IMG/VR virus record: IMGVR_UViG_3300049445_000358
DNA length: 64,000 nucleotides
Direction: 5' to 3' (one strand)
From: a virus
The notes under the pieces are model-generated. The model was not told where the DNA came from. It searched no databases and worked only from the letters and a program-made list of their open reading frames with translations. The translations under genes were made by a program, and so were the position numbers. Positions 7,294 through 48,108 of this stretch are shown here, in pieces; within the stretch, counting starts at the first letter, position 1, and each line of letters opens with the position of its first letter.

Positions 7294-7294
7294 C

Positions 7295-7561: not shown

Positions 7562-7562
7562 C

Positions 7563-8147
7563 ATGACGACTCAAAAGTGGGAGTGGATCAAGAAGGAGGA
7601 GCGTACTCTCGTCTTCATCGATGGGAGCAACCTCTATAACACTACCCGCCTTATGTCCTTCGACATCGACTACGGCAAGCTCCGCTCGGTCTTCAGCGAC
7701 AACTGTAACTTGACGCGGATGTACTACTTCACAGCCGTGGGCGAGAACCGAGAGTCAAGTCCGGTCCTCGGTCTAGTCGACTGGCTTGACCGTAATGGCT
7801 ACAATACCATTACCAAGCCAATACGTACCCAGTACAGTGGAGACACCAAAGGCAACATTGACATCGAGATTGCGGTCACAATGCTGAGAGCAGCACACAG
7901 AGGATACATGGACCGAGCCGTGCTATTCTCTGGTGACAGTGACTTCAGATGCCTGATCGAGGAAGTGCAGAACCTTGGGTCGAAGGTAACTGTGGTCTCC
8001 ACTCTAACAGTTAAACCCATACCTTGCGCAGATGAACTCATCCGGCAAGCAGATCACTTCTGTGATCTTGACTCTCTTCGTTCACTAACATTTAGGGATC
8101 CCCATGCCACAGTTCGAGGTAACCGTCGTTCGAACCACGACCCGTGA
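7563..8147 (+). CDS. NYN domain (LabA/DUF88, PIN-like) nuclease
   Basis: VFIDGSN, KGNIDIEIAV, LFSGDSDF, ELIRQADHF. Confidence 0.9.
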   Translation: MTTQKWEWIKKEERTLVFIDGSNLYNTTRLMSFDIDYGKLRSVFSDNCNLTRMYYFTAVGENRESSPVLGLVDWLDRNGYNTITKPIRTQYSGDTKGNIDIEIAVTMLRAAHRGYMDRAVLFSGDSDFRCLIEEVQNLGSKVTVVSTLTVKPIPCADELIRQADHFCDLDSLRSLTFRDPHATVRGNRRSNHDP

Positions 8148-14597: not shown

Positions 14598-15394
14598 TGA
14601 GAGATACTATGGGAGTAATGTCGGATCTGGAAACACTGGCTGCGATCGACGACGGTCGTGTCATCATCTGGCCCTTCGATCGGCAATCACTCAATACCAG
14701 CTCGTACGACATTCGCCTTGGTGAATTCTACTACGAGGAACACCGTCCGTCCCTTGCCACGAGGGCCCGCGCTTTACTGACTCCGAAGCGCGCAATGGTT
14801 TTCAACCCGTACGACAAAGAGCATGTCGATCGAGTCTGGGGCAAGGACGAAGATTTCCTACGAGCAAAGCCAGCCAAGGAAGTCTTGAGGTCCTATATCT
14901 CGTCGGACTGGATGGGGATCGAACAGCGTGACCTCCTAACTACAGGGATTCATCCAGACGACCTCATCATCCTGGTGGGTCCGCGACGTACCATCCTAGC
15001 CCACTCCCAGGAGTTCATCGGGGGCGTACGCTACGCCACTTCCATGATGAAAGCAAGGTCGAGCTGGGGGCGAAGCTTCGTCGAGGTATGCAAGTGTGCT
15101 GGCTGGGGTGACATCGGGTTCTTCAATCGCTGGACAATGGAGATCACGAACAACTCCTACTGGTACTCCATCCCCCTAGTAGTAGGCAGGCGGATCGCAC
15201 AGATTGCCCTCCTGACCACTGGTGAGATCCAGGGAGACTCCTACTCGACGGAGCAATCCAAGTACCAGACGTCCGAGAAGCTCGATGACGTCATCACTAC
15301 TTGGCATCCCCGCCTACTCAAACCAGGCTTGTGGCGTGACAGAGACATCGTGCGGATGCCTGCAATGCCTGAGCAACTTCCTCTAGCGGCCTAA
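14594..15394 (+). CDS. dcd: dCTP deaminase family
   Basis: SSYDIRLG, ARSSWGR, AGWGDIGF, TMEITN, RRIAQI. Confidence 0.85.
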   Translation: MMRDTMGVMSDLETLAAIDDGRVIIWPFDRQSLNTSSYDIRLGEFYYEEHRPSLATRARALLTPKRAMVFNPYDKEHVDRVWGKDEDFLRAKPAKEVLRSYISSDWMGIEQRDLLTTGIHPDDLIILVGPRRTILAHSQEFIGGVRYATSMMKARSSWGRSFVEVCKCAGWGDIGFFNRWTMEITNNSYWYSIPLVVGRRIAQIALLTTGEIQGDSYSTEQSKYQTSEKLDDVITTWHPRLLKPGLWRDRDIVRMPAMPEQLPLAA

Positions 15395-19087: not shown

Positions 19088-19830
19088 TGATGCAAAGGAG
19101 CAAGTCAGCAATCGTAGCTTTGCTCCTAGCCACAACGGCTTGCGGAGGATCACCCTTGGCTCCGCTTCAGCCGGGAAAGGTCAGGATCTCCGACCCTATG
19201 CAGTACCTGGCTCAATCGCGAGCACCCGACGGTAACGTAGCAACTCCCCTACACGACTACGACCCGATAGCTTATCGCAGGTTCGACTTCGGGCACTCTC
19301 AAGCGTCAGACAGCTTCCTGACTGGCCCGACTTCGGCGATCACAACCTGGAGCTACTCTCCCTGGAATGAGTTCACCGACGCCAACGGTGATGGTGGGGA
19401 GACCTATGAGCTCCAGGGCGATAAGGTGTTGATCACCAGCACGAAGCATATGGGCATCCCTACGACAGCCATCTCATGGGTCGCCCTACGTACCGACACC
19501 GTAGATTGCTCGCAGGGTTGGACGACCTACTCTCCACTCGAGCGAGGGTGTAGAGTAGCAGTCACATACCCGAACATCGGACCAGTAGACACGATCGTCA
19601 GTGAGCATCTCAACCCAGTTGAACAGTTTGTTGAACGCATATTCCTGGGACGAGGCTGGGGCAGACTAGCATGGCAGACGTTCCGAGCCTCGGGACAGCC
19701 AGTCAAGGACCGTTGCCCCGACTTCGGATGGAGCACCTATGCGAGCTGGGCTCTAACCGATTGTCGGTATGCCCTCAATGTCGAGCAGGCATCAGGCAAT
19801 CTAACAGGAAAGAATCTCTGGCACCCCTAG
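19078..19830 (+). CDS. Lipoprotein
   Basis: Basic N-terminus, hydrophobic core and lipobox LATTA-C; true start probably 19087 or 19090. Confidence 0.7.
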   Translation: MEVMMQRSKSAIVALLLATTACGGSPLAPLQPGKVRISDPMQYLAQSRAPDGNVATPLHDYDPIAYRRFDFGHSQASDSFLTGPTSAITTWSYSPWNEFTDANGDGGETYELQGDKVLITSTKHMGIPTTAISWVALRTDTVDCSQGWTTYSPLERGCRVAVTYPNIGPVDTIVSEHLNPVEQFVERIFLGRGWGRLAWQTFRASGQPVKDRCPDFGWSTYASWALTDCRYALNVEQASGNLTGKNLWHP

Positions 19831-19853
19831 TAAGCGAGCGGGATAACCTAACC

Positions 19854-20423
19854 ATGCAGTCCGATAATGAGAGAGCTTGGGAACGGAGTAAGCGAGAGGG
19901 CGTCAACCCGAAAGACCTGATCGGGGTCACCAAAGTCCCCTTCCAAGTCGTTCCTTGGCCGGCTGTCGCTTACATGTCGTTCTGCATGTATGATGGAGGA
20001 GTCAAGTACGCTCCCGTCAACTGGCGTGACATCGCCGTCAAGCTAAGCATCTACGCCGAAGCTGGGCTAGGCCACTTCGCTTCGATCCTCGACGGCAAGG
20101 ACTATGATCCCGTCACTGCATTACACCATGCGGGCTATGCTATGTCGTGCGGAGCGATCATCCTTGATGCCTTGATCACCGACAGCCTCATCGACGACCG
20201 CTTTGCAGTGCGTCGCCAACGTCCAGGGGCTCTGGCATCACGCGACATCGTCGGCTACCCAGAAGGCAGGCCAGGTGCCATCAAGGAGATGATCGCCAAG
20301 CCTCTCCGTCTCGATCCTATCGGTTCTATACCGGTACCTCCGCCTCAACCGTCAGCAGATCCCGAACCGGTACCTGCACCTGAGAGTCTGGTCCCAGACG
20401 GAGGTCGGGAGGAGCCGTTCTAA
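19854..20423 (+). CDS. DUF5664-type dATP/dGTP pyrophosphohydrolase domain protein
   Basis: NPKDLIGVTK...GGVKYAPVNWR...DPVTALHHAGYA...DDR. Confidence 0.75.
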   Translation: MQSDNERAWERSKREGVNPKDLIGVTKVPFQVVPWPAVAYMSFCMYDGGVKYAPVNWRDIAVKLSIYAEAGLGHFASILDGKDYDPVTALHHAGYAMSCGAIILDALITDSLIDDRFAVRRQRPGALASRDIVGYPEGRPGAIKEMIAKPLRLDPIGSIPVPPPQPSADPEPVPAPESLVPDGGREEPF

Positions 20424-32849: not shown

Positions 32850-33602
32850 ATGAAGACCTTGGCGTATGTCCTCCTCTCAGGGGGCATTGACTCGACCACC
32901 TGCGTCGCGGAGGCTGTTGCAGCCGTAGGGCGGCGCAATGTCCGATGTGTGTCGATCGACTACGGCCAGCGACACATTCGCGAGCTGGAGTCGGCACGAG
33001 CGGTGGCAGGGTACTATGCCCGGCCTCACACCATCCTACCAGTCTCGTTCCCGCGCTCTATGCTGACGGACCCGTCCATCGAGGTTCCGAACATCTCATA
33101 CGCGGAGATCCAGGGGGTGTCCCCTACCTACGTTCCGTTTCGGAACGGGCTATTCCTGGCGACGTTGGCATCACATATCGCAGGTATCCACTTCGACCCA
33201 ACGAAGATGACTCTCCCGATGGAGAGTACGATCCCAGGCGACAACGTACCCAACCCCGAATACAACGCCGACGTTACGTTGTACTTCGGCGCGCACGCGG
33301 AGGACGCGCAGAACTGGGCGTACCCAGACTGCACACCCGAGTTCGTCGGAGCGATGGCCAACGCGCTGTACGTCGGCACATACCACAAGCTCCGGTTGGT
33401 GACCCCCTTCGTACACTCGACGAAGTCCCAAATCATCCAGCGGGGTAAACAGCTCGGCGCACCGTATTACCTGACCTGGTCCTGCTACAAGGGCGGTGAG
33501 GTACACTGCGGTACCTGTGCAACCTGTCTCGCACGAAGGGACGCCTTTATCGAGGCAGGCGTCGAAGACCCGACCATCTACATGGCCGAAGCTGCCGAGT
33601 AA
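32850..33602 (+). CDS. queC: 7-cyano-7-deazaguanine synthase
   Basis: LSGGIDS, DYGQRH, YVPFRN, YPDC, TWSCY...HCGTCATC. Confidence 0.95.
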   Translation: MKTLAYVLLSGGIDSTTCVAEAVAAVGRRNVRCVSIDYGQRHIRELESARAVAGYYARPHTILPVSFPRSMLTDPSIEVPNISYAEIQGVSPTYVPFRNGLFLATLASHIAGIHFDPTKMTLPMESTIPGDNVPNPEYNADVTLYFGAHAEDAQNWAYPDCTPEFVGAMANALYVGTYHKLRLVTPFVHSTKSQIIQRGKQLGAPYYLTWSCYKGGEVHCGTCATCLARRDAFIEAGVEDPTIYMAEAAE

Positions 33603-33651
33603 CTACACTACACTACGTATCCAACACCCGAGGGGAGGTTCAGGGCCGTAT

Positions 33652-34236
33652 ATGACGTTCAAGATCGACCGTTGCATCGAGATCGACGCAGGACACCGTG
33701 TGCCGACCCACGGGTCGAAGTGCGCAAATCCTCACGGGCATCGGTATAAGATCTTCGCCGAGTGTCAGTCGGCCAGCCTCACCCGAGAGCATCAGGGTGG
33801 AGCATACATCCATCTTCCTGGAGGCGATAAGGACGAGCAGCGGGATATGGTCATGGACTTCGGCTTCCTGAAGGAAGTCATGATGCACCATATAGACCGG
33901 ATGTGTGATCATGGCATGATCCTCTGGTGCGACGACCCTTGGGCGGCTATGATGCTGGACCCTTACCAGAACAACCCTATCGGAGTCCTACAAAGTTTGA
34001 CCCACGTGAGGGATGAGACCCTACCATTCCTCTTCGACGTCGTCGAGAAAGGCCACGATCCTCTTGCTCCACGCAAGCTGTTGATTGTGCCGTTCATTCC
34101 GACGGCAGAGCGCCTCGCAGAATTCTGGTACAACCTCATGAAGGAGGATGTCCATGTTCGGTCGAATGGGGTCGCCTATCTCAATCGCGTTAGCGTCTGG
34201 GAAACGCCGAACTGCTGCGCGTCCTACCCAGCATAA
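33652..34236 (+). CDS. queD: 6-carboxy-5,6,7,8-tetrahydropterin synthase
   Basis: DAGHR...CANPHGHRY, PTAERLA, VWETP. Confidence 0.92.
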   Translation: MTFKIDRCIEIDAGHRVPTHGSKCANPHGHRYKIFAECQSASLTREHQGGAYIHLPGGDKDEQRDMVMDFGFLKEVMMHHIDRMCDHGMILWCDDPWAAMMLDPYQNNPIGVLQSLTHVRDETLPFLFDVVEKGHDPLAPRKLLIVPFIPTAERLAEFWYNLMKEDVHVRSNGVAYLNRVSVWETPNCCASYPA

Positions 34237-34256
34237 GGAATACGTGGAGCCGGTCA

Positions 34257-34592
34257 ATGGTTGCGAAGTTCTCTGTCGGGGAGAGGGTGATTGGCCTACA
34301 GCACTCCCGAAGTCTGGCCCTGTTCGACATCCAGGAGATCTACCTGAATGCTGAGGGGAGTGCCGTCTACAAAGCCGTAAGGTGCTCGAACAACTCTCCT
34401 GAGTTCGTCGAGGAGGTTAACCTCAGCAAGTGCAACGGCAAGTACGTTGAATACGGAGGAAGTGTCTGGGACATTGAGTCAGTCCACCGGCCTGTCTTAA
34501 CGGCTCCTCCGGGTGAAGTCTCTGACGACACGAAGCTCGCCCTTAGCGACCTGGTCGAGTACCTGAATCGCAAGCACATAAGCAGAGGGTAA
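34257..34592 (+). CDS. Hypothetical protein inside the que cluster
   Basis: GGAG RBS, 111 aa. Confidence 0.6.
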   Translation: MVAKFSVGERVIGLQHSRSLALFDIQEIYLNAEGSAVYKAVRCSNNSPEFVEEVNLSKCNGKYVEYGGSVWDIESVHRPVLTAPPGEVSDDTKLALSDLVEYLNRKHISRG

Positions 34593-34596
34593 CACT

Positions 34597-35352
34597 GTGG
34601 CTAACACCGCAAAGAACATCCCGGTCATGGAGATCTTTGGACCCACCATCCAGGGTGAGGGAGCTCTAACAGGTCAGGTCTCCTACTTCATCAGGACCGG
34701 TGGCTGTGCCTATCGGTGCACCTGGTGCGACCAGATGGAAGCGGTTCTGCCGAAGGAAATCAAGAAGAACGCCACCTACCTGTCTGAGTCGCAGATCGTC
34801 GAGAAGGTCATGACTCTGCTACCTCCAGACGGTGTGCCAAACGGGTCGGACGTCTGGATGACGCTGAGCGGAGGCGACCCGCTCATGTGGAACCTCGAGT
34901 ACGTTGTCGGCTCCCTCCAGATAGCAGGAATGAAGGTAGCTGTTGAGACTCAGGGGACTCTGAACCCTATGTGGCTCCAGTACGTAGACCTCATCACCTG
35001 CTCACCAAAGCCTCCGTCCTCTGGGATGAGCCACAAGATCAACCATAACACTATCGAAAGCTACCACCGCTTGTTCGGCAAAGACAGGGTTGTCCTGAAG
35101 GTCGTCGTCTTCGATGAGAAGGACCTCGACTTCGCCCAGGCAATCCACGAGAAGTGGCCTACGACACCTTTCTACCTGAGCGTAGGCACTCCGACAGAGC
35201 AAGAGTGCCCAGACGACGACAAGATGAAACAAGCAATCCTCAAGAGGTACAGATGGCTCGCGGACGAGTTTCTCAAAAGACCAGCACTGTGGGGAGCAAC
35301 AATGGGTCCGCAGATGCACACCTTTCTGTACGCCCGCGAGAAGGGAAGGTAG
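34597..35352 (+). CDS. queE: 7-carboxy-7-deazaguanine synthase (radical SAM)
   Basis: EIFGPTIQGEG, CAYRCTWCD, SGGDP, ETQG, PQMH. Confidence 0.95.
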   Translation: MANTAKNIPVMEIFGPTIQGEGALTGQVSYFIRTGGCAYRCTWCDQMEAVLPKEIKKNATYLSESQIVEKVMTLLPPDGVPNGSDVWMTLSGGDPLMWNLEYVVGSLQIAGMKVAVETQGTLNPMWLQYVDLITCSPKPPSSGMSHKINHNTIESYHRLFGKDRVVLKVVVFDEKDLDFAQAIHEKWPTTPFYLSVGTPTEQECPDDDKMKQAILKRYRWLADEFLKRPALWGATMGPQMHTFLYAREKGR

Positions 35353-35357
35353 CGGCC

Positions 35358-36029
35358 GTGAATGAAGCTACATCTCCCGGATACGAGTACCGTCGCCCTT
35401 CTCAGTCTCCCATCAGGGAGATGATCGAGAAGAAGCTCCCTCCCGAAGGACAACGGGATAGGGATGCAGCACACTCGATACGTGCCGCTCTCGAGCAGCT
35501 CGGGATGGACTGTGACCCAGGAAATCCGTCTATCGCCAATACGCCGGAACGATTCATCAAGTACCTCAAGGAATTCTTCCAGCCGTTCGATGCAATCGAG
35601 CTCCTCGGAGAAGGCTTCGATGCGGTACACGACAACACGTCGATCAGCAGCATCGTCGCCCAGGCGCATATTCCGTTCACGGCGGTATGTGAGCATCACC
35701 TCCTCCCGTTTCAGGGAGAGGCTTTCGTTGGTTACATACCTAACCAGCGCGTCATCGGATTGTCCAAGATGGCACGTCTTGTTCATGCTGTCGGACACGA
35801 GCGTCCGGGTCTCCAGGAAGCGATGGGCGAGAAGATCGCCGACCTCCTTTATCAGGGGATCGACGCCAAGGGAGTAATGGTCGTTCTCCAGGCTAAACAC
35901 GGCTGCATGTCATGTAGAGGGGTTCACACGCCTGAGGTCGTCACTGTCACCTCCTGCGTTCGAGGGCTCTTCCGCGACGTCGTAGCTGCTCGTGAAGAAT
36001 TCCTCTTCCTCACAGGTTTCCGTCGTTGA
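35358..36029 (+). CDS. folE: GTP cyclohydrolase I
   Basis: TPERF, CEHHLLPF, GLSKMARL, LQE, HGCMSCRGV. Confidence 0.95.
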   Translation: MNEATSPGYEYRRPSQSPIREMIEKKLPPEGQRDRDAAHSIRAALEQLGMDCDPGNPSIANTPERFIKYLKEFFQPFDAIELLGEGFDAVHDNTSISSIVAQAHIPFTAVCEHHLLPFQGEAFVGYIPNQRVIGLSKMARLVHAVGHERPGLQEAMGEKIADLLYQGIDAKGVMVVLQAKHGCMSCRGVHTPEVVTVTSCVRGLFRDVVAAREEFLFLTGFRR

Positions 36030-37283: not shown

Positions 37284-37502
37284 ATGGCCCAGTGTGAATA
37301 CCACCCAGACAAGGAATGCAGGTTCCTACACTTGTGTCAGGGAGTGGGTTGCTCTCACGAAGGCTTCGAAGTGAGGAAGTATCCTACTCGCAGGTCTCCC
37401 TGGCAATCGGGCTACAAGCCTGAACCGCCTCCGATGCAAAGTTCCGACGGAGGTCGTGCCCTCGGCGGCAAAGAGACTCCGAGCAAACCCAGAAGGGAGT
37501 AA
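37284..37502 (+). CDS. Hypothetical protein
   Basis: GGAG RBS, Cys/His-rich N-terminus. Confidence 0.45.
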   Translation: MAQCEYHPDKECRFLHLCQGVGCSHEGFEVRKYPTRRSPWQSGYKPEPPPMQSSDGGRALGGKETPSKPRRE

Positions 37503-37506
37503 GAAC

Positions 37507-38478
37507 ATGGCATACCAGCTGCCAGTAGCCGAGATCGTGTTAGACTCAGCCCATCCTATGGGCGACGAGTACCGCACGACGACTGTCCGAGGCAACATCC
37601 ACAAGTTCGTCCTAGCCGAGCGCAACCGTCACAGGATGTTCTCGCTCTCCGACCGGTCGAGTCGAGCAATCCCGACCAAGCGTCTCATCGACGAGATCCT
37701 AGGTGGAACAGGTTTGGCGATGCCTGTTGAGTTCCGTCGCAACATTCCAGGCATGGCTGGCGGCGAACCCTTTACCGGTGAAGAGCTTCTACTAGCCCAG
37801 CAGAGATTTGAGGACGACGCTAGGGCTGCATGTGTAGGGGCCCGAACTGCAATGGAGGCGAACGAGGCGAAGGAGACAGTTAACCGCCGCCTCGATCCGT
37901 ACTCTTGGACCTATACGGTGATGACCGCCACTCGAGACTGTTGGCTGAACTTCGCTGGTCTCCGGCTCGACAAGTTTGCCCAGCCCGAGATCCGCGTGTT
38001 CGCCGAGTCCTTCTGGCGCGCCTGGAACGAATCGACCCCCAAGCTTCTCAAACCCGGCCAATGGCATACCCCGTTCGTCGACGGCGAAGACTGGATAAGC
38101 ATCGAAGAGATGGCCTCCAGACCTGGAGAGGGCTACATGCCCGAACACGATACTTTGAATAAGGCGATCAAGCTGTCGGTGGGCCGGTGTGCACATACCT
38201 CCTATGTCGATTTTGAGACTGGGAACAGGATGACAGTTGAGAAGGCAATCGGCCTGTATGACAAGCTGATCACCTTTCGCCCGCTCCATGCCTCGCCCTC
38301 TGAACACCAATGCACTCCGGACGAGCTGGCAAATCCGATCATCACCTACCGAGCAGAGCCTATGTGGATGCACCCCAAGCTCCATGGGAACCTGCCGGGA
38401 TGGATTCAGCACCGGAAGCAGCTGCCTGGTGAACGTGTTGCTCCACTACCCGAGGGCTACGTCTATCGTGCGCATTAG
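37507..38478 (+). CDS. thyX: Flavin-dependent thymidylate synthase
   Basis: RHRMFSLSDRSSR fits RHRx7S; AQPEI; HASPSEH. Confidence 0.85.
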   Translation: MAYQLPVAEIVLDSAHPMGDEYRTTTVRGNIHKFVLAERNRHRMFSLSDRSSRAIPTKRLIDEILGGTGLAMPVEFRRNIPGMAGGEPFTGEELLLAQQRFEDDARAACVGARTAMEANEAKETVNRRLDPYSWTYTVMTATRDCWLNFAGLRLDKFAQPEIRVFAESFWRAWNESTPKLLKPGQWHTPFVDGEDWISIEEMASRPGEGYMPEHDTLNKAIKLSVGRCAHTSYVDFETGNRMTVEKAIGLYDKLITFRPLHASPSEHQCTPDELANPIITYRAEPMWMHPKLHGNLPGWIQHRKQLPGERVAPLPEGYVYRAH

Positions 38479-38859: not shown

Positions 38860-41800
38860 ATGAAGATCGTTCGCCGATTCACTACTGCAGGGACACCTGT
38901 CGAAGAACAGATTGTCTGGAAGCGGATGGCCTCCCACATCGAAGACATGAGAACTGGGAAGGTCATACACCATCAAGACGACGTTGAAGTCCCGGAGCAG
39001 TGGTCGCAGACGGCGACGAACATGCTATCCCAGAAGTACTTTCGGAAGCGCGGCGTCCCAACAAGGACTATCCGCTTCAACTCTCCTGAAGAATCGGATA
39101 TGCCCGGCTGGATACAGCGTTCAATCCCGGCTATGGATGCCGAGTACATCGGCGAGACCTCTGGGAAGCAGGCCTTTCACCGGTTGGCTGGCTGCTGGAC
39201 GTACTGGGCCTGGAAGATGGGACTCATCAAGGATGGGGTATCAGCCCGGAATTACTATGACGAGATGTACTGGATGCTTGCCATGCAGTACGCTGCACCC
39301 AATTCGCCTCAGTGGTTCAATACCGGACTGCATTGGGCCTATGGCATCGAGGGACCGGATTCCGGTCAGTGGACGGTACTCTGGGACGGGAACATCGCAG
39401 ATGGAGTTACATATCCTTACGTTGACCGAGTATATGATTCATACTCCAGGCCTCAGCCGCACGCATGTTTTATCCAGCCAGTCCAGGATGATCTTGTCAA
39501 TGAAGGCGGCATTATGGACCTATGGGTTCGGGAGGCGCGTCTTTTCAAGCACGGCTCTGGCACCGGTACAAACTTTTCTAGTCTCCGTGGTGAAGGGGAA
39601 GGACTCTCGGGTGGAGGTCGTTCCTCCGGTCTCATGTCCTTTCTACAGATCGGTGATCGAGCGGCTGGTTCAATTAAGTCTGGCGGTACCACTCGAAGAG
39701 CTGCCAAGATGGTCTGTATCGATGTGGACCATCCAGACATCGGAGAGTTCATCGAGTGGAAGTCCGGAGAAGAAAACAAGGCCTCAGACATCGCCGTGGG
39801 GTCGAAAGTCACAGCACGACATCTGAGAGGCATCCACGAGGCAGTTCTGAGATGGGGAACCAGTTCGGTTCTCTATAAGGAGCGTGTAAATGCTGCACGT
39901 GATGATGGCGTCCCTGACTCGATTATCAACCGGGTGCGCTACGCTGCAGAGCGAGACGAGCCGTTCAAATGGGAAGTCTACGAGGCTAACTCTTGGGAGG
40001 GAGTCCCGATCGAGACGGTCTCAGGGCAGAACGCAAACAACTCGATCAGGATCACCTCGAAGTTTCTACAAGCCGTCGACGAAGATAAGCCTTGGGACTT
40101 GATCGCCAGGACTACTGGCAAGCCGATGAAGACCGTATCGGCCAAGGGTCTCTGGGACAAGATCGTTCGAGCTGCCTGGACTACCGCTGACCCAGGTATG
40201 CAGTTCCATGACGTGATCAACGACTGGCACACCTGCAAAGCGGATGGAGACATCAATGCCTCTAATCCATGCTCCGAATACATGTTCCTCGACGATACTG
40301 CTTGCAATCTTGCTTCGCTCAACCTGGTTAAGTTCCGTGGGTCTAATGGTGGTGTGGATGTTAACGCATACATCCACGCCTTGAGGCTGTGGACAGTCAC
40401 TCTGGATATCTCAATCCAGATGGCTTCGTTCCCGTCCCGGAACATTGCACACAACACTATGCAGTATCGGACGCTGGGGTTAGGCTACGCCAATCTCGGC
40501 GGCCTCTTGATGCGTTCAGGCATCCCATACGACTCTGAGGTGGGGCGCAACTTCGCAGCAGCTTTGACCTCTCTAATGACAGCTGTAGCGTACAGCACCT
40601 CCGCAGAGATGGCTGGCGAGATCGGCCCGTTCCCAGCATGGGAGCGCAACAAACACTACATGGCCGTTGTGATGGGCATGCATGCTGCTGCCCTGGACGG
40701 CCTTCAGACGGACGAGTGGTCTGGGCAGTTGCTAGTTGCAGCTCAGCGCTACTGGAGTTTGGTCGTAAATGATGCAGGGACTGTTGGCTTCCGCAATGCA
40801 CAGGGGACGTTGCTAGCCCCAACAGGCACTATCGGACTCCTGATGGACGTCGACACAACAGGCTGCGAACCCGAGACCTCCCTAGTGCGCTACAAGAACT
40901 ACGCCGGAGGCGGCTCGGATAAGTTCGTGTGTCAAGCAGTCGAAGAAGGCCTCATTAAGCTCGGCTACAACGGCGACCATCTGAAGGCCGTTCTCAAGTT
41001 CGTCGAGGAGAACGGGCACCTAGCAGTTGCGACTGAGAATCACGTCGCAGGTATCTGGTCGGAGCACCTCCCAGTCTTCGACTGCGCTCTAGACCGTAAG
41101 GAGACCACCAGATATATTCGGCCGATGGCCCACATCGAGATGCTGGCGGCCATCCAGCCGTTCCTGTCTGGAGCGGCGAGCAAAACGTGCAATCTGCCTG
41201 AGACAGCAACCTACGAAGACGTCGACATGCTTTACCGGGCTGCTGAGCGGTTGAAGTGCAAGGCTGTCGCCCTATACCGAAACAACTGCAAGCTCACCCA
41301 ACCAGTCCAAACCGAGCAGCAGCCGGCCGTCGAGCGCCCAGACGACCAGCCCTTCATCCCTGAGACCGATCTAGTACGTCACACATCCATAGAGGAGCTC
41401 CGAGCAGAGAGGACGCACAGCAACGGCCATGACAAGACGAACGGATCGATGCAGAGGGGCGAGAGGAAGTACCCTCCCAACAGGCGATATGGACCGGCAC
41501 AGAAGGTTCGCATCAACGACCAAGTGATCCATATCCGAACCTCCGAGTACCCTGACGACCACTCGTTCGCTGAAGTGTTCGTCGATATGGGCAAGGACGG
41601 GTCGATGCTGCAGGCGGTCCTAGGTCAGTGGGCTAAGGCTGTCTCACTTGCAAGGCAGTACGGAGCGCCGACTGAGAAGCTCGTTGAGTCGTTCCTGCAT
41701 ACCCGATTCGAGCCTGCTGGGTTCGTTCAGGAGCACGACCACATTAAGTCATGCACCTCCGTCATCGATCTGGTTGCTCGCGAGATCGGCTTTACCTACC

Positions 41801-42048
41801 TCAAGCGTATGGACTTAGTCCAGGTACCCCCTGACACAGACCACGCGATGCACTTCAATCCGGTTGCATTCCAACCACAGCATCAGACAGAACATTCTTC
41901 CCTGATGGGGACTGCTGGAGTTGTAGCGTCGCCAGTTCGGATGGTTGCGTCCGGTAACGCTTGCAGTGTCTGTGGCAACGAGATGGAGTGGGACGGTACC
42001 TGCCTCAGATGTCGCCGTTGCGGCAACAATACCGGTTGCGGGAGTTAG
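38860..42048 (+). CDS. nrdJ: Class II (B12-dependent) ribonucleotide reductase with TSCPD and zinc-ribbon C-terminus
   Basis: PNSPQWFN, QPHACFI, NPCSEY, ACNLASLNL, LAPTGTIG, C-terminal CSVC/CRRC. Confidence 0.95.
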   Translation: MKIVRRFTTAGTPVEEQIVWKRMASHIEDMRTGKVIHHQDDVEVPEQWSQTATNMLSQKYFRKRGVPTRTIRFNSPEESDMPGWIQRSIPAMDAEYIGETSGKQAFHRLAGCWTYWAWKMGLIKDGVSARNYYDEMYWMLAMQYAAPNSPQWFNTGLHWAYGIEGPDSGQWTVLWDGNIADGVTYPYVDRVYDSYSRPQPHACFIQPVQDDLVNEGGIMDLWVREARLFKHGSGTGTNFSSLRGEGEGLSGGGRSSGLMSFLQIGDRAAGSIKSGGTTRRAAKMVCIDVDHPDIGEFIEWKSGEENKASDIAVGSKVTARHLRGIHEAVLRWGTSSVLYKERVNAARDDGVPDSIINRVRYAAERDEPFKWEVYEANSWEGVPIETVSGQNANNSIRITSKFLQAVDEDKPWDLIARTTGKPMKTVSAKGLWDKIVRAAWTTADPGMQFHDVINDWHTCKADGDINASNPCSEYMFLDDTACNLASLNLVKFRGSNGGVDVNAYIHALRLWTVTLDISIQMASFPSRNIAHNTMQYRTLGLGYANLGGLLMRSGIPYDSEVGRNFAAALTSLMTAVAYSTSAEMAGEIGPFPAWERNKHYMAVVMGMHAAALDGLQTDEWSGQLLVAAQRYWSLVVNDAGTVGFRNAQGTLLAPTGTIGLLMDVDTTGCEPETSLVRYKNYAGGGSDKFVCQAVEEGLIKLGYNGDHLKAVLKFVEENGHLAVATENHVAGIWSEHLPVFDCALDRKETTRYIRPMAHIEMLAAIQPFLSGAASKTCNLPETATYEDVDMLYRAAERLKCKAVALYRNNCKLTQPVQTEQQPAVERPDDQPFIPETDLVRHTSIEELRAERTHSNGHDKTNGSMQRGERKYPPNRRYGPAQKVRINDQVIHIRTSEYPDDHSFAEVFVDMGKDGSMLQAVLGQWAKAVSLARQYGAPTEKLVESFLHTRFEPAGFVQEHDHIKSCTSVIDLVAREIGFTYLKRMDLVQVPPDTDHAMHFNPVAFQPQHQTEHSSLMGTAGVVASPVRMVASGNACSVCGNEMEWDGTCLRCRRCGNNTGCGS

Positions 42049-42074
42049 GGTAGGCCCTCCCATTATTTACCCTC

Positions 42075-42104
42075 TTGCAATGACCAAGGCACATATGGTA
42101 TAAT
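42075..42104 (+). promoter_or_regulatory. Promoter P6 of the dpdA-polymerase operon
   Basis: TTGCAA-18-TATAAT with extended -10 TG; upstream CCATTATTTACCCTC resembles the box. Confidence 0.8.
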
Positions 42105-42110
42105 AAGATA

Positions 42111-42410
42111 ATGGCTGATCCAATAGACCTCTGGGCAGTAGACCTCGACAAACCTGTGGAGGTTCTAGCCCGATACTGGAACGAATTTAACTGCTGGAGC
42201 TGGCCTGAAGAGCTGCTCAGCCTCAAGCCTGAAGGGTATGATGATATGCCCCTCAGTGAGAGGCACATCATCATTAGGCCCGCAATGCATGCGATCAGCG
42301 ATAAGGTACCTGAGAAAGAATTGCTCCGGTACCACCATCTGCACAATCTATCGAGAACCGAGACCGAGTTTGAAGCTTGGTGGGCTAAGTCTGAGGCAGG
42401 AGACATCTAA
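42111..42410 (+). CDS. Hypothetical protein
   Basis: Starts 6 nt after the -10 element (possibly leaderless); TAATG-coupled to the next gene. Confidence 0.65.
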   Translation: MADPIDLWAVDLDKPVEVLARYWNEFNCWSWPEELLSLKPEGYDDMPLSERHIIIRPAMHAISDKVPEKELLRYHHLHNLSRTETEFEAWWAKSEAGDI

Positions 42411-43258
42411 TGGCTTTGTTTGCACCTATTGGTCCTGCTCGCCTCCTGAGGAAGATTCGTGAGCTACATGGCGACAGGATGTTAGGGAAGTACCACTTGG
42501 TGCTTGCCCATGATATCGTCGCCAACCCGGATGAGTGGAGAAACTGCCGCACACTCCCTCCAGACTCGACTGTCATCATCGACAATTCGATCATCGAGCT
42601 CGGAGCTCCCGTCGATGTGGATACGATGGTAGAAGCCTATGGGATTCTTGGCCCTGACTACCAGTGTATCATCGTACTGCCGGATAAGTTCGACGATCCG
42701 GTTGTTACCCTAGAGCAGTCGGCTGACTACCTCGAGAAGTTGAAGTCCAGGCCGGAGCTCGGCGGTGTCGAGTACATGTACGTCGTCCAGGGCGATAGGT
42801 TGTCGGACTTCTCAGAGTCGTTTCTCTGGTCCAGCCTGGATCACATCGTTGATCGGGGAGCTCGATGGATCTCAGTACCTCGGCGAGTATGTGACAAGTT
42901 CGGCACAAGGATGGTAGGGCTCTATCCTCTGTTGAACTACAGGCTCAGAAGGCCGATAATCGACATTCATCTGTTGGGGTTCAGCGAGAACGTCCTCGAC
43001 GATGCCTGGTGTACAGCCTGTCCAGGAGTTACGGGGATTGATTCGGCAGTACCTGTTCGACTCGGCCAAGCAGGTCGCTCGATCGACTTACTACACAAAG
43101 GAGATCAAGCAGGGCCAAGAGGGACCTTCTGGGAGGACCCCCATGGCCACCTGAACCTCATGGTCGGCGAGAACCTCCTAGCTGTCAGAGTCTGGTTCGA
43201 AGCTGCACATAAGAACCTTCCCAGATATATCCCCGAAATCAAGGAGGAGTGGCTGTAA
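42410..43258 (+). CDS. dpdA: TGT-fold DpdA-like 7-deazaguanine DNA transglycosylase
   Basis: TGT-ordered motifs IIDNS, VLPD, VVQG, IHLLG, GIDS; no C-terminal CxCxxC zinc site. Confidence 0.72.
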   Translation: MALFAPIGPARLLRKIRELHGDRMLGKYHLVLAHDIVANPDEWRNCRTLPPDSTVIIDNSIIELGAPVDVDTMVEAYGILGPDYQCIIVLPDKFDDPVVTLEQSADYLEKLKSRPELGGVEYMYVVQGDRLSDFSESFLWSSLDHIVDRGARWISVPRRVCDKFGTRMVGLYPLLNYRLRRPIIDIHLLGFSENVLDDAWCTACPGVTGIDSAVPVRLGQAGRSIDLLHKGDQAGPRGTFWEDPHGHLNLMVGENLLAVRVWFEAAHKNLPRYIPEIKEEWL

Positions 43259-46006
43259 ATGCCCAAACTCCTAGCAGGTCCAGCGTGGGACTTCGCTGAC
43301 ACGGATATGCCGAAGTGTCTTGGATGCCCTTACGGGGGAGCCAAGTGTGGTTCGCGCGGGAGGATGGATGCACCGATAGTCTTTGTGGGCGAGGCACCCG
43401 GCCAAGAAGAGATCAGACCAGGCCAACGGCTGCCTCTAATAGGTCCTTCAGGAGAGGTATTCTGGGGTACATTCCCTCCCTTACAGACGCTCAGGGATGA
43501 GGGCATGGACCCGAATGGGTTCCTCATCCTCAATGCAGCTCAGTGCAGACCTCCGAGGACCAAGAACCAGCAGAAGAATATCGCCAACGTCAAGAGGGCA
43601 ATGGTCACATGTCGTGACCGTCTGCTAGAGCAGGTAGCCAGGCATCCCCGTAAGCTCGTAGTAGCAATGGGGAACTTTGCCCTCTGGTCCTTGACAGGGA
43701 ATATGAACTATAAGATCACCCAGGTTCGAGGTCAACCTATTCCTAGTCCCTTGGCTGAACATGGGATCCTGCCGGTAGTTCATCCCGCAGGCATCATGCG
43801 TGGTACTGGCAACTATCGTCAGTACAAGATGGACATGAACTACGCCCTTGACATCCTCCGGGGACATCCTCTCAAAAGCCCCGTCAAGACATTCTACCTG
43901 GTATGCGATACACCCGACAGGGTCCGTCGAGCAATCAAGAAGTTAGTCAAGGCACCAGTTATCGACTGTGACATTGAGACGACGGGGTTCAACCCCAGAG
44001 TCGATGACATACTGGCTCTAGGGATGTCGAAGGACCCCCGGCTGGTGTACATCTTCCCAGGAGCGATTCGATCGATTGACCGGATGATCGAGTTGCAGGC
44101 CCACGAGACGTGGATGGACGGTCAGCCATCCATGATTCCATACCTGAGAGGCTTCTTCCGGAAGTACCGCGGGCATATGAAGTTCTCCGCCGCCGGCAAG
44201 CCGATAGGCAAGGGTAAGCTCTGCTGGCATAACGGCAAGTTCGACATCTCATTTATGAGGGCTCCCGGCTCGGGTCTGGAAGACGAGGACCTCTCTATTG
44301 GCCAAGAGGCAGAGGTTGCGGTCGACGAAGATACGATGTTGATGTCCTATGTGCTCGACGAGAACAGAGGCATCCACGATCTAGAGCAGGTTGCTTCGGA
44401 CCTACTGGGAGCACCAGACTACAAGTTCATTATCAAGCAGTGGGTTCCTAGGAAGAAAGATTCGTATTGTAGGATCCCCCGTACGATCCTGTACAACTAT
44501 TTGGCATTGGACGTCGGCTCGACAGGCGGCATTCGAGACATCATGCGTCGCCGAGTACGGGAGGATCCGGTACAAGAGAAACTGTACCAGCATCTCCTCC
44601 GATTCTCGGAAACGGCGTATTGGATCGAACGCCGTGGCATGCCCGGGAACAGGTTCGCTCTGGAGAGGCAGCAGAGACGCCTCCAGAAGGTCCTCGACGA
44701 GTCCATAGCAGTGGTTCAGGAGGAGGCTGAGAAGCTCGGTGTTGATAAGTACATCAATCCAGGCTCCCCACAACAGATGGCCTGGATCTTCTTCGACGTC
44801 CTGAAGTATGACATCCCCGAAGGGCATGAGCGTTCTACCCAGAAGGAGGTAGTAGCGAAGCTACCTCAGTCGCCGATTGTCAAAGCGTACAGGGCTTTCA
44901 AGGTAGCCCAGAAGGCTAAGGGGACGTATGCAGATGCCCTCCTCAGAGCGATCGATCCCGTTACTGGACGAATTCATCCGGGACTACTTATCCATGGAAC
45001 GCGCACTGGCAGACTTTCGCACAAGGTCGTCGCTAACATCCCTCGAGACAAACGCCTTAGGGGCATGTTCGCATTCGAGGTCCCTCAGCAGTCCCGAATT
45101 CTCGAACTACCCAAGCCTTACCTCATTACTAAAGGCTTCTCGGGTGAGCCGGCTGTCATCGGAGGCATGGCTCGAGGGGGCCGGCTATTCCTCAAAGCCG
45201 ACCTTGATCAGGCGGAGCTTCGAGTACTTGCTGCCATGTCAGGAGACCCCGAGCTCTGTGCCATCTACCTCTCCAACACACGCAAGCTCCACAGAGAAGT
45301 CGCATGCGAGATCTGGGGATCGCCAGGGACGACAGAAGGCAAGAAGAGCGGTGAGTTCAAGTGGGGCAACGAAGAGTACATGAGGGCAAAGGCTCTCAAC
45401 TTCGGGATCATCTACGGTCGAGAAGAGTTTTCCATCGCAATGGAGTTCGGCATCCCTGTCGGTGAGGCTAAAGGCTACATCGACATGTGGAAGAACAAGT
45501 TCCCGGTTGCGTGGAAGTTCATCGAGGATTGTCGAAAGAAGCCCCTCGAGATGAAGACCATGGTGACTCCTTTCGGAAGGAAGAAGAGGCACTGGATCGT
45601 CACGAGAGAGAACGTTCATGGCCTCCAGAACGAGGCTGCGAACTTCCCAGAGCAGTCGATCGCCAATGACATTGTCCTCGAAGCGTCGAATCAATTAGCT
45701 GTGCCTTTCCGCAAACTTGATGTACACACTGTCTTTTTGGTGCACGACGAAATCTTACTGGATGTTCCTGACGACATCGGTGTCGTAAGGGAAGCTCGCC
45801 ATATGGTTGCGGAAGCTTTAGAACAAGCGCCGAAGACCTGGGGCATTACCAGAGTGCCATTCAAGGCAGACACCTCAGTCGGTCGCCGTTGGGGTGTTTA
45901 TCGAGGCACCGACCGCAAGGGGGCTTGGAACGAGTATCTCCAGTCTAAGATTCACCTCGTCACCGACGCAGAATACACCGAGCTGGGCAGAGGAGCCGCC
46001 GACTAA
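43259..46006 (+). CDS. polA: Family A DNA polymerase with an N-terminal UDG family-4-like domain and 3'-5' exonuclease
   Basis: CLGC/GEAPG/CRPP/HPA; DIET, HNGKFD, YLALD; DLDQAELR, RAKALNFGIIYG, VHDE. Confidence 0.93.
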   Translation: MPKLLAGPAWDFADTDMPKCLGCPYGGAKCGSRGRMDAPIVFVGEAPGQEEIRPGQRLPLIGPSGEVFWGTFPPLQTLRDEGMDPNGFLILNAAQCRPPRTKNQQKNIANVKRAMVTCRDRLLEQVARHPRKLVVAMGNFALWSLTGNMNYKITQVRGQPIPSPLAEHGILPVVHPAGIMRGTGNYRQYKMDMNYALDILRGHPLKSPVKTFYLVCDTPDRVRRAIKKLVKAPVIDCDIETTGFNPRVDDILALGMSKDPRLVYIFPGAIRSIDRMIELQAHETWMDGQPSMIPYLRGFFRKYRGHMKFSAAGKPIGKGKLCWHNGKFDISFMRAPGSGLEDEDLSIGQEAEVAVDEDTMLMSYVLDENRGIHDLEQVASDLLGAPDYKFIIKQWVPRKKDSYCRIPRTILYNYLALDVGSTGGIRDIMRRRVREDPVQEKLYQHLLRFSETAYWIERRGMPGNRFALERQQRRLQKVLDESIAVVQEEAEKLGVDKYINPGSPQQMAWIFFDVLKYDIPEGHERSTQKEVVAKLPQSPIVKAYRAFKVAQKAKGTYADALLRAIDPVTGRIHPGLLIHGTRTGRLSHKVVANIPRDKRLRGMFAFEVPQQSRILELPKPYLITKGFSGEPAVIGGMARGGRLFLKADLDQAELRVLAAMSGDPELCAIYLSNTRKLHREVACEIWGSPGTTEGKKSGEFKWGNEEYMRAKALNFGIIYGREEFSIAMEFGIPVGEAKGYIDMWKNKFPVAWKFIEDCRKKPLEMKTMVTPFGRKKRHWIVTRENVHGLQNEAANFPEQSIANDIVLEASNQLAVPFRKLDVHTVFLVHDEILLDVPDDIGVVREARHMVAEALEQAPKTWGITRVPFKADTSVGRRWGVYRGTDRKGAWNEYLQSKIHLVTDAEYTELGRGAAD

Positions 46007-46239
46007 TGGAATCAGGAATAGAGTTCCGCCGTACCTGGAAGCGAGGAGCTAACGGCGAGTGGCAAGAGGTCGAGTTTGAACGGCTCCGGGTCGGAGACGT
46101 GTTCAAGCTGGAGGACACCTCCAAAGGCGTAACCTACCTTACGGGTAAGGTCGGTACTACGCCACAACCCTGTGAGCCCCCAGGAAACTGGACCTTCGAA
46201 TCGGACGGCCTCGAGTGGCACGATAAGGACCCCGACTAA
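46006..46239 (+). CDS. Hypothetical protein
   Basis: TAATG coupling. Confidence 0.65.
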   Translation: MESGIEFRRTWKRGANGEWQEVEFERLRVGDVFKLEDTSKGVTYLTGKVGTTPQPCEPPGNWTFESDGLEWHDKDPD

Positions 46240-46673
46240 TGCGTGCCCCCGCCCCCGCTCGGGCGAGACCAACCCTGCACCCGGACAATGGAGTTCGAGA
46301 GGCTCGAGAGATCGTATTCCGCAACGGGGGTCGAGGATCAGGTAGGACGTTCTATATGATCACGTCCATCGACCCCGATGTCCCAACAGTGATCGTCACT
46401 CACGATCCGGGAGTCGGTCGCTATATCGGCGACCTCATCAAGGTGCACCGCCCAGAGATAAACTACACCGACTACGGCTCAGGGAAGACTAAGATCATCA
46501 CGGTGAAACGCGACGAGGACCTCCGGTTACTACGAGGATGGTCAGGAGCAGTCAAAGTTGATCACGCAGTACTCGACAACATAGACAGACGGGTGCTTGG
46601 ACTATTGGAAGCCGTCTGTGAGAAGGTCGCTGTTGAGAAGGCAGACAGGGATCGAGCTAGACAGGGTAGATAG
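46239..46673 (+). CDS. Hypothetical protein with a degenerate P-loop
   Basis: GGRGSGRT; TAATG coupling. Confidence 0.55.
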   Translation: MRAPAPARARPTLHPDNGVREAREIVFRNGGRGSGRTFYMITSIDPDVPTVIVTHDPGVGRYIGDLIKVHRPEINYTDYGSGKTKIITVKRDEDLRLLRGWSGAVKVDHAVLDNIDRRVLGLLEAVCEKVAVEKADRDRARQGR

Positions 46674-46676
46674 AGG

Positions 46677-46913
46677 ATGGACGACGATCTGGCTTCAGAG
46701 TTCTTTAAGGTATCGGCTGCTTGGCATGGTCGTAGTGACGAGCGTATGACCACGAACCAAGCTATCACGCGCCTGAACCATGTTGCCTCGCAGGCGGAAA
46801 ACCCAGGACTTGCTGGGAGGGCCCGCTTATTACTGGACCAGATCGTTTACGGAAGAAATCATCGACCAGCAAGGATTATGACCAATGGCCGCACCGATCC
46901 ACGTCGTTACTAG
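46677..46913 (+). CDS. Hypothetical protein
   Basis: GAGG RBS. Confidence 0.6.
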   Translation: MDDDLASEFFKVSAAWHGRSDERMTTNQAITRLNHVASQAENPGLAGRARLLLDQIVYGRNHRPARIMTNGRTDPRRY

Positions 46914-47133
46914 CGAAGTTTGTGGGCGCTGCAAGTTCTCAAGAGCCAATCCGGCGCCTTCTCCCGGACTTGAACTGATCTGCAAACGGATGCCTCCACA
47001 CGCCTCGGCTACCCTGATGGGTCGTCAGCCTGATGGTCAGCCTCTCTTCATGTACACTTCATACTACGCCTGTGTAGGCGAGCACGAGGAAGGCTGTGGT
47101 GAATGGAAGCCGAAGATCACCATCACCAACTGA
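46885..47133 (+). CDS. Cys-containing hypothetical protein
   Basis: CGRCKF...CKRMPP...CGEWK; last + strand gene. Confidence 0.6.
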   Translation: MAAPIHVVTSEVCGRCKFSRANPAPSPGLELICKRMPPHASATLMGRQPDGQPLFMYTSYYACVGEHEEGCGEWKPKITITN

Positions 47134-47145
47134 CCGTCGCCGATA

Positions 47146-48108
47146 TCAGGGGTGGGTGAAGGGCTGGAAGAATACGCTGGCTGGGCCCGAAGCGGGTAGG
47201 GCTGTCACAACGGCGTAGCCGTTCATCTTAGACACTCCCGAAGCTCCTTGGACAATGGCGTAGGAGTTTATCTTAGACACTCCCTCGCCTGTAGCTTCAA
47301 CGATGCCATAAGAGTTGAGCTTGCTCACCCGGTCGTCAGCGTTCTCGACGATCCCGAAAGAATTGATCTTAGGGACGGCTGCAGGGGCTGCCTCAGCGTT
47401 GTCAGTTAAGATCGAGAACGTTGCGATCCCGGGCCAGTATGTCGCTCCCGACTTGAAGTAGCCCTGCGACTTACTGCCTGTTCCGACGTTGCCTCCGGAG
47501 TCACCAGCTATCAACGAGTCGTTAGTGGTTATCCTTGTGAAAGTAGGAGCCGTAGTGCTATTGGTGCTTGGTCCGGTAGCAGGGCTGACCCGAGACCAGG
47601 CAAAGCTAAGTAGAGATGCCTGTGATGACACGACAGTAGTCGACAGATTCTCGTTGTCGGTAGCGGTGGTGATTTGGCTGATAGCATGACTGTCGATAGT
47701 ACCGGTCTGAGTGATCGCGTTGTGCGACGTTGCTACACCCATCGTGAAGCTAGTTGTTCCGGAGAGGGTGACCGCAATGGTATTCGATCCTGACGCAGGA
47801 TTGACCAGGTACCAGACCTCGAAGTCCTGGTTATTGCTCTCCTGCGCCGCTGTGATTCCATCCAGCTTAGTCAGGGCAACACCGTTGTAGGTGATGCCTG
47901 TGACCGTCCGAGAGGCCGAGTTGAACGTCGAAACAGCAACGGCGAGGAAGCGGTTCGACCCGGAGGTCGTGTGCGACCAGCTGAAGCTAGAGACGTTCGT
48001 CGACCAGCTTCCTCCGTTGCTCTTCGAGGCAGCATCGAAGGCTGCCTTAGCAGATAGAGGCCATAATAAGGCTACAAGTAGGACAGCGAGTAGTAGACGC
48101 TTGATCAT
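47146..48108 (-). CDS. Signal-peptide-bearing beta-rich (fibre/adhesin-like) protein with C-terminal repeats
   Basis: MIKRLLLAVLLVALLWPLSAKA|; S/T-rich body; 4x VSK(I/L/M)NSY repeats. Confidence 0.75.
   Translation of the reverse strand: MIKRLLLAVLLVALLWPLSAKAAFDAASKSNGGSWSTNVSSFSWSHTTSGSNRFLAVAVSTFNSASRTVTGITYNGVALTKLDGITAAQESNNQDFEVWYLVNPASGSNTIAVTLSGTTSFTMGVATSHNAITQTGTIDSHAISQITTATDNENLSTTVVSSQASLLSFAWSRVSPATGPSTNSTTAPTFTRITTNDSLIAGDSGGNVGTGSKSQGYFKSGATYWPGIATFSILTDNAEAAPAAVPKINSFGIVENADDRVSKLNSYGIVEATGEGVSKINSYAIVQGASGVSKMNGYAVVTALPASGPASVFFQPFTHP

Follow-up and report, generated by a model that had tools for sequence, protein, structure and literature searches.

This study examined a DNA polymerase gene in a 64,000-nucleotide stretch of DNA from a soil phage (the window), which corresponds to bases 2513-66512 of the 80,218-bp IMG/VR record IMGVR_UViG_3300049445_000358, rated complete by CheckV. 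The gene lies at positions 43259-46006 on the plus strand, where one open reading frame (ORF) encodes a protein of 915 amino acids (P0001), and it fuses a family-4-type uracil-DNA glycosylase (UDG) domain to a 3'-5' exonuclease and a family A DNA polymerase (PolA). With moderate confidence, we consider the UDG domain to carry out ordinary uracil surveillance in cis with the replicative polymerase, and Leu60, which lies at the site of the uracil-stacking phenylalanine, to be a compensated variant of the uracil pocket. Uracil surveillance is the best reading because the UDG-PolA enzymes of SP15-like phages excise deoxyuridine (dU) from the template ahead of synthesis. Fusions of this kind are already known from N4-like, SPO1-like and SP15-like phages, and the clade described here was itself uncharacterised before.

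The protein was matched by the DNA polymerase family PHROG 17 (E 3e-91), and its Pfam domains follow one another in the order UDG (residues 34-185), DNA_pol_A_exo1 (residues 323-433) and DNA_pol_A (residues 473-879, E 5e-54). Based on the Pfam match, a match to the solved structure 1L9G and an AlphaFold2 (AF2) model, the UDG domain occupies 43307-43858 (residues ~17-200). The original prediction had placed a family-4-like UDG domain fused to PolA at 43259-43900, which represents residues 1-214 of the polymerase and hence the UDG domain, and this identification is borne out by the Pfam match, the motifs and the AF2 fold. A linker and the exonuclease domain follow at 43902-44668, with D238, E240, D329 and D418 of the exonuclease invariant in the relatives, and the polymerase domain occupies 44675-45895, all on the plus strand. 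The ATG at 43259 directly abuts the TAA of the preceding gene and is preceded at approximately 10 nt by the Shine-Dalgarno sequence AAGGAGG. The public gene call P0002 (880 aa, from Met36) would drop the CxxC pair of the Fe-S site, and this start is too short because the relatives share a conserved N-terminus, in which the first 35 residues, including the CxxC pair, are maintained; the ATG at 43259 is accordingly read as the real start of the UDG-PolA.

During the search for relatives, megablast of positions 40000-48000 against cultured phages returned no match, and the isolated N-terminal domain matched no family among the PHROGs. The whole UDG-PolA was matched by 284 clusters at 50% identity (E<=1e-10). 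The relatives sampled comprise 24 fused homologues, 80 viral-contig loci and 150 representatives of 50%-identity clusters, the last being the best 150 of 4392 hits and nearly all of them fused polymerases. Among these relatives, L053 (9995-13273), P0029, P0111, P0125, P0129, P0131 and P0163 measure 1070-1270 aa, as compared with the usual ~800-900 aa, which suggests that the longer UDG-PolAs carry inteins or large polymerase inserts.

The UDG domain scored 69 bits against the Pfam UDG model (E 6e-19, cut-off 24.3) on residues 34-185, and it aligned with TM0511 of T. maritima, a solved family-4 UDG (1L9G, E 9e-15). The original prediction had described the four Fe-S cysteines, GEAPG, the conserved Asn and HPA as intact, and the PFVG stacking motif as reading PLIG; in our alignment each of these falls in register with TM0511. 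The first two putative [4Fe-4S] ligands, Cys20 and Cys23, form the CLGC motif (43316-43327, opposite CTAC of TM0511), the stretch LNAAQCRPP (residues 91-99, 43529-43555) holds Leu91, the uracil-binding Asn92 and the Fe-S residue Cys96, with NAAQCRPP opposite NVVKCRPP, and the putative fourth ligand, Cys118, lies in TCRD (residues 117-120, 43607-43618, opposite ACGH). These four cysteines stand opposite the four of TM0511, as would be expected, at the level of sequence, of a [4Fe-4S] site; one more cysteine, C30, does not belong to this set and is shared by the closest relatives only. Motif A reads GEAPG (residues 44-48, 43388-43402, opposite GEGPG) and includes Glu45, and motif B reads HPAGIMR (residues 175-181, 43781-43801, opposite HPSYLLR) and includes His175. 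PLIG (residues 59-62, 43433-43444) is aligned with the PFVG of both TM0511 and UdgX, so that Leu60 is located opposite the stacking Phe. All these motifs are read on the plus strand. Across 50 diverse relatives, C20, C23, E45, P47, N92, C96, C118, H175 and R157/G158 showed no variation, and R181 hardly any.

The AF2 model of residues 1-215 was obtained at a predicted local distance difference test (pLDDT) of 95.1, and the closest structural matches to the UDG domain in it are family-4 UDGs and UdgX, with 1UI1 (Z 19.8, root-mean-square deviation 3.1 A over 174 residues), 1VK2 (Z 19.8) and 4ZBX (Z 19.2). Lower scores were obtained for the family-5 enzyme 2D3Y (Z 15.9), for MUG (Z 13.3) and for the UDG domain that the phiLo polymerase carries (9QHS, Z 13.2). 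The cellular UdgA enzymes (T. thermophilus 1UI0, TM0511 as 1L9G/1VK2 and S. tokodaii 4ZBX) share with the window domain the fold (Z 19-20), GE(A/G)PG, the Asn, HP(A/S) and the four cysteines; they are, however, stand-alone proteins of ~190-200 aa with Phe in PFVG, whereas the window domain is fused and has Leu, and therefore does not display the aromatic stacking residue of family 4. We also considered an identity with UdgX and rejected it, as the KRRIH loop with its cross-linking His109 is missing and reads PPRTKNQQKNIANVKR, with no His, motif A is GEAPG and not GEQPG, and the UdgX model TIGR03914 gives 54.8 bits against a cut-off of 189.95. Among the curated models consulted for family 4, NF040953 gave 52.8 bits, under its cut-off of 250.

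With regard to conservation, the mean pairwise identity within the clade of the window reaches 60.7% in the UDG domain, as opposed to 53.8% in the exonuclease region and 57.0% in the polymerase domain. The UDG domain is under strong purifying selection in this clade, and it is the best-conserved part of the protein, with invariant motifs, which would not be expected of a decaying or merely structural domain. These sequence patterns indicate that the domain has a selected function in the lineage of the window, most likely a catalytic one. It could otherwise be proposed that the domain exerts no catalysis in vivo, being retained only as a structural or processivity module, as Czernecki et al. 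proposed for the N4-like enzymes (PMC10201439), and the domain is indeed kept in relatives with degenerate motifs (a sister clade reading SRSPG in motif A and NNPAV in motif B, L051, and L052-L058), implying a role beyond catalysis. The N4-like proteins (cluster 17 of Czernecki et al. 2023) also resemble the window protein in having an N-terminal, family-4-derived UDG on a phage PolA of 800-900 aa, but their domains are without the catalytic residues, whereas the window protein keeps E45, N92 and H175. As all the catalytic and Fe-S residues are intact and invariant across the clade, and no part of the protein is better conserved, we judge a silent module to be improbable here.

With reference to the literature, UDG-PolAs are of two kinds, namely the N4-like, whose catalytic residues have been lost, and the SPO1-like, in which they are retained (Czernecki et al. 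2023, PMC10201439), and the occurrence of such fusions in SPO1-like phages, as stated in the original prediction, is confirmed by the same work. In all the UDG-PolAs modelled there, the UDG lies like a wedge, with the exonuclease domain on one side and the polymerase domain on the other (PMC10201439). Missoury et al. 2026, who defined the SP15-like subfamily, reported from cryo-EM and assays that the YerA41 and phiLo polymerases remove dU from the template strand ahead of synthesis and that the abasic site left behind is bypassed with dA (PMC13697223). The SP15-like group (YerA41, phiLo and SP-15), which is the only UDG-PolA group with demonstrated excision of template dU, has the same N-terminal UDG with the motif A Glu and the motif B His, followed by the exonuclease and the replicative PolA; these proteins differ from the window protein in their length of 1100-1300 aa, two large inserts, a C-terminal domain of ~80 aa and T-hypermodified DNA (PMC13697223). 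The window protein, in contrast, has 915 aa, no such inserts, a polymerase domain that follows the Pfam profile without a break, 36 residues after this domain and a module of preQ0 and DpdA-like genes, and its UDG is structurally nearer to the cellular family-4 enzymes than to that of phiLo.

By analogy with the SP15-like polymerases (PMC13697223), the uracil proofreading suggested in the original prediction is the best-supported function of the domain. In this scheme, the first ~200 residues would act as an Fe-S family-4-type UDG in cis with the replicative family A polymerase, and uracil in DNA at the fork would probably be flipped out and excised, with the template strand ahead of synthesis as the likeliest site. 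Uracil arising from cytosine deamination or from incorporation of dUTP would thereby be neither copied nor kept. Leu60 would be a tolerated variant of the pocket, offset by neighbouring residues, and not a switch to a new substrate. The UDG activity, the template-strand mode and the neutrality of Leu60 are what we infer from these comparisons.

The uracil load of the phage was also considered. A dCTP-deaminase-like (Dcd) gene is located at 14594-15394 on the plus strand (Pfam DCD, E 4e-21), while neither of the dUTPase families PF00692 and PF08761 was detected in the complete 80-kb genome, and no second UDG was found in it. The original prediction had relied on the presence of Dcd and the absence of a dUTPase in the window, and this holds for the complete genome. 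A Dcd-like gene without a dUTPase or a second UDG would fit a need for uracil control in this phage. The plus-strand ORF at 19671-20423 belongs to the dATP/dGTP-diphosphohydrolase type and is not a dUTPase, as it carries the PF18909 N-terminal domain (E 3e-14). Homologues were seen in six related loci; the dATP/dGTP diphosphohydrolase family is known from aminoadenine phages, and here it is found in a 7-deazaguanine phage. In addition, the plus-strand ORF at 37456-38478 (340 aa) showed a weak, partial match to ThyX (Thy1, E 3e-9, residues 47-195), with homologues in 3 of the 80 loci.

The distribution of residue 60 was followed in the 192 relatives of the intact set, in which E45, N92 and H175 are all present, and comprised 145 sequences with Phe, 38 with Leu, four with Val/Ile and one with Met. 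In the full-length tree, the window falls in a clade of 22 members (support 100), all of which have Leu with no reversion among them, and Leu was also found in two further lineages with Phe-type sisters. On a tree of the exonuclease and polymerase regions only (FastTree, 158 rows), no fewer than 11 switches between Phe and aliphatic side chains are needed, and overall the Phe-to-Leu change originated at least 7-11 times among ~160 relatives. Leu60 is thus a genuine, conserved and recurrent trait of lineages.

The residues around position 60 were found to vary with it. Position 44, the first Gly of motif A, was other than Gly in 18 of the 43 sequences with an aliphatic residue 60, where Ala, Leu or Ser replaced it, as against 2 of the 145 with Phe, though Gly44 is mostly retained in the clade of the window itself. 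Positions 44 and 60 changed together in ~6 of 7 phylogenetically independent pairs and never in the opposite direction (sign test, p ~0.03). Covariation of position 60 with Thr91 and Pro176 was set aside, for its strong raw counts (at position 91, Leu/Ile in 36 of the 43 aliphatic sequences and Thr in 106 of the 145 with Phe) were not significant on independent pairs; only the coupling with Gly44 passed. The coupled change at positions 60 and 44 looks like a repacking that makes up for the volume lost with a smaller, non-planar side chain.

Alternatively, this aliphatic pocket (in the window protein Leu60 together with Leu91; in other lineages also Ala or Leu at position 44) could alter what the domain does, either by broadening or shifting its specificity, for instance towards 5-substituted uracils, or by leaving a domain that binds uracil with weak or no excision and, sensing it in advance, makes the polymerase stall. 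Elsewhere the stacking Phe is almost universal, being described as invariant in nearly all characterised UDGs (PMC5449639), and its replacement recurs at least 7-11 times, does not revert in the 22-member clade and is accompanied by changes at up to three more pocket-adjacent positions (44, 91 and 176). Both non-aromatic precedents are, moreover, tied to 5-hydroxymethyluracil (hmU): BdiUng (Blr0248 of Bradyrhizobium diazoefficiens), with Met92, excises U, hmU and xanthine from single-stranded DNA (PMC5449639), and SPO1, whose gp31 has Met at the stacking site when aligned to the domain profile, has hmU in its DNA (PMC10201439). The authors of the BdiUng study, however, ascribed its broad specificity to Ala59 of motif A and not to the Met (PMC5449639), and motif A, Asn92 and His175 are unchanged in the window protein. 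Correlated changes at positions 44 and 91 would also be expected from volume compensation that preserves the pocket, and no thymidine-hypermodification genes were recognised in general scans of the window ORFs, in which no search was aimed at them. We therefore regard an altered specificity or a sensing role as rather unlikely.

BdiUng still excises uracil with its Met (PMC5449639), and together with the Met of SPO1 it serves as a precedent that a non-aromatic residue is compatible with uracil excision. Neither is a close likeness of the window domain, for motif A of BdiUng is family-1-like (GQDPA), and the enzyme is dimeric, broad in specificity, free of an Fe-S cluster and not fused to a polymerase (PMC5449639). 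SPO1 gp31 has the same order of three domains, with 22.5% full-length identity to the window protein; in its alignment to the domain profile (residues ~25-50) it displays QENPF as motif A and Y-M-T-G where PFVG would stand, and lacks both the Fe-S cysteines and the Asn; these differences place its pocket much farther from family 4 than that of the window.

Several observations weigh against ordinary uracil surveillance and are gathered here. The curated family-4 model TIGR00758 gave 59.8 bits, under its cut-off of 125.3, and the covariation at position 91 was lost once phylogeny was considered. Loss of the stacking Phe could reduce activity or shift specificity. In several lineages, the catalytic residues have decayed and the domain is kept, so that catalysis is dispensable in some phages of the group. 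Furthermore, just 6 of 29 relatives carry Dcd- or dUTPase-like genes, and no Leu-type relative searched was among them. Such genes are too rare in the relatives to explain the clade-wide retention of the domain, and Dcd as the general reason for that retention is rejected in view of its absence from the Leu-type relatives searched.

The window also carries the preQ0 genes QueC (Pfam, E 1e-47), QueD (PTPS, E 1.5e-24), QueE (Radical_SAM) and FolE (GTP_cyclohydroI, E 5e-47) at 32850-36029 on the plus strand. It had been proposed that the Leu substitution is linked to the que and DpdA genes, and this was not upheld. Of the first 50 related records, 36 have QueC (PF06508), among them all 11 that are at least 90% complete, and 9 of the remaining 30 have it as well, making 45 of 80 overall. 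Every relative at least 90% complete outside one sister clade with a dead UDG has QueC, whether Phe- or Leu-type, as does every such record with a DpdA-like gene, and the QueC-negative records are either short fragments or members of the SRSPG...NNPAV sister clade. Since QueC-positive genomes hold both Phe-type and Leu-type polymerases, the distribution of the substitution against the que genes offers no discrimination, and among these relatives neither a Leu-type nor a Phe-type polymerase came from a phage shown to be without que genes.

The closest cultured relatives, the Brevundimonas phages vB_BpoS-StAshley and MaInes (ON529865 and ON529866; 31.7% identity over 94% of the length), illustrate this point. 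They share with the window the order QueC-QueD-QueE-x-DpdA-like-PolA-RNR, and in StAshley the module runs QueC-QueD-QueE-x-hypothetical-PolA-RNR-...-FolE; the pocket is, however, canonical (GESPG / PFVG / INALQC / VHPAF), so that a Phe-type polymerase occurs in the same module. Their proteins are annotated as 'DNA polymerase' and 'hypothetical protein'. Two representatives of the aliphatic type from other lineages lie in the same kind of module, which comprises SNF2, PD-(D/E)XK, AAA_24, DUF669, QueC, QueD, QueE, FolE, an ORF of ~260 aa, the UDG-PolA and RNR. Judged from these gene contents, Leu60 appears unrelated to the 7-deazaguanine genes of the phage.

Directly upstream of the polymerase, a plus-strand gene of 282 aa (42410-43258), whose stop abuts the polymerase start, encodes a DpdA-like protein with the fold of tRNA-guanine transglycosylases (TGTs), as indicated by profile and AF2 fold searches. 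Single-sequence searches of this ORF against Pfam, PHROG and the PDB gave nothing meaningful, and Pfam TGT had no match in six frames across the whole genome; the TGT relationship is visible only by profile and fold search. A profile built from 45 homologues found the DNA-guanine transglycosylase DpdA (7UI4) as its best PDB match (E 0.004, over the HLLG...GIDS block), and the AF2 model (pLDDT 91.7) retrieved tRNA-guanine transglycosylases for all of the top 50 Foldseek matches (E ~2e-8, probability 1.0). The 'DpdA' named in the original prediction is in this way supported at both the fold and the profile level, and the gene combines TGT fold and homology with co-occurrence with preQ0 genes. 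A weak match to DUF6610 was obtained for 10 of the 45 homologues. In Pfam, DpdA4 of Halovirus HVTV-1 is matched by this same family (PMC10516641); DpdA4 has been described as archaeal-virus-specific.

The pairing of the two genes was seen repeatedly. In 52 of the 80 loci, a DpdA-like homologue sits immediately upstream of the polymerase and on its strand, often overlapping it, and the same pairing occurs in the cultured phages StAshley (homologue at 6975-7775 of ON529865), MaInes and Weizmannia phage Youna2, whereas Bacillus phage BSP7 has a partial DpdA-like match (37% of the query) upstream of its polymerase; the copies in cultured phages are annotated 'hypothetical protein'. The association of the DpdA-like gene with UDG-PolA runs deep in this group of phages and is conserved there.

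This adjacency could be taken to mean that the UDG domain has been repurposed to read or edit modified bases such as preQ0, other 7-deazaguanines or abasic intermediates, acting jointly with the DpdA-like transglycosylase, a repurposing that the original prediction had also considered. The recurrence of the pair in the 52 loci and in cultured phages of Brevundimonas, Weizmannia and Bacillus, the presence of QueC in every relative at least 90% complete outside the SRSPG...NNPAV clade, and the retargeting of the UDG fold towards modified bases in Brig1 and Brig2 (bioRxiv 10.1101/2025.10.29.685425) are in line with it. Contrarily, the residues that read N3/O4 and O2 of uracil (N92 and H175) are invariant, and the pocket, as judged by homology, is pyrimidine-sized; with the uracil-reading residues unchanged, the domain is unlikely to take a purine-sized ligand of the 7-deazaguanine kind. 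The occurrence of Leu does not follow that of the que genes, and Phe-type enzymes occupy the same module. The known 7-deazaguanine glycosylases, Dag1 and Dag2, belong to the helix-hairpin-helix (HhH) superfamily and not to the UDG fold, and adjacency within an inherited replication module is equally explained by common descent.

At least five QueC-positive lineages with a DpdA-like gene are without E45, N92, H175 or the cysteines, which signifies that the function of the DpdA-like protein is independent of UDG chemistry. The catalytic Glu, Asn or His is lost in L027, L033, L038, L051, L052, L056, L057, L058 and L072, and Youna2 has also lost the Asn; in L022, L023, L026, L028 and L036, only the Fe-S cysteines are lost, with GEAPG, PFVG and the His kept. 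The QueC-positive phages in this manner present a graded series of independent natural inactivations of the fused UDG domain. With the Asn and His invariant in the intact enzymes and several QueC-positive, DpdA-like-positive lineages catalytically dead, a 7-deazaguanine-reading pocket was not sustained, and we hold a role in reading or editing modified bases to be very improbable.

A sister clade (L055, L059-L066, L069, L070, L073-L078 and L080) keeps the domain and its cysteines, with the Glu and His lost. The SRSPG and NNPAV sister clade is without QueC and the DpdA-like gene, including in three records that are at least 92% complete. A designation of the SRSPG...NNPAV clade as 'N4-like' was dropped, as its closest cultured relatives are Brevundimonas phages and not N4.

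Whether the two proteins may touch each other was approached by complex prediction. Residues 1-470 of the polymerase with the DpdA-like protein scored 0.46, against 0.15 for the best of three controls, and the runs agreed in at least 80% of the contacts, with a pLDDT of at least 83 for the partner. Of 80 solved complexes, 58 attain the score mark applied, as do 2 of 110 mismatched pairs, and passing scores of 0.60 or below, as obtained here, came from only 7 of the 80 solved complexes and from both passing mismatches. The prediction hints weakly at a physical complex, and only to that extent lends weight to a modified-base reader as well. It would also be compatible with a proposal which we hold tentatively and consider rather doubtful, namely that the UDG-PolA and the adjoining DpdA-like transglycosylase form a physical, replisome-coupled unit, in which guanine would be exchanged for 7-deazaguanine at the fork or just behind it, the UDG/exonuclease half would act as a docking platform, and the aliphatic pocket variants would adapt this platform and not uracil repair.

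UDG-PolA fusions have so far been tied to thymidine-modified phages (SPO1-like and SP15-like) or to inactive domains (N4-like). This study adds a further large clade, in which an intact Fe-S family-4 UDG is carried on the replicase of phages with the preQ0 pathway and is paired with a divergent DpdA-like gene. The phage group is very large and almost uncultured, and the cultured phages StAshley and MaInes, with the same module, offer a tractable system. Of lesser weight, the Phe-to-Leu change provides a natural experiment on an 'invariant' stacking residue of the UDG superfamily, with Gly44 as a covarying partner. Our data raise the question of whether uracil surveillance is generally built into the replicases of base-modified phages, and likewise whether base exchange of the DpdA type may be coupled to replication, which bears on how some DpdA subfamilies reach complete replacement of guanine.

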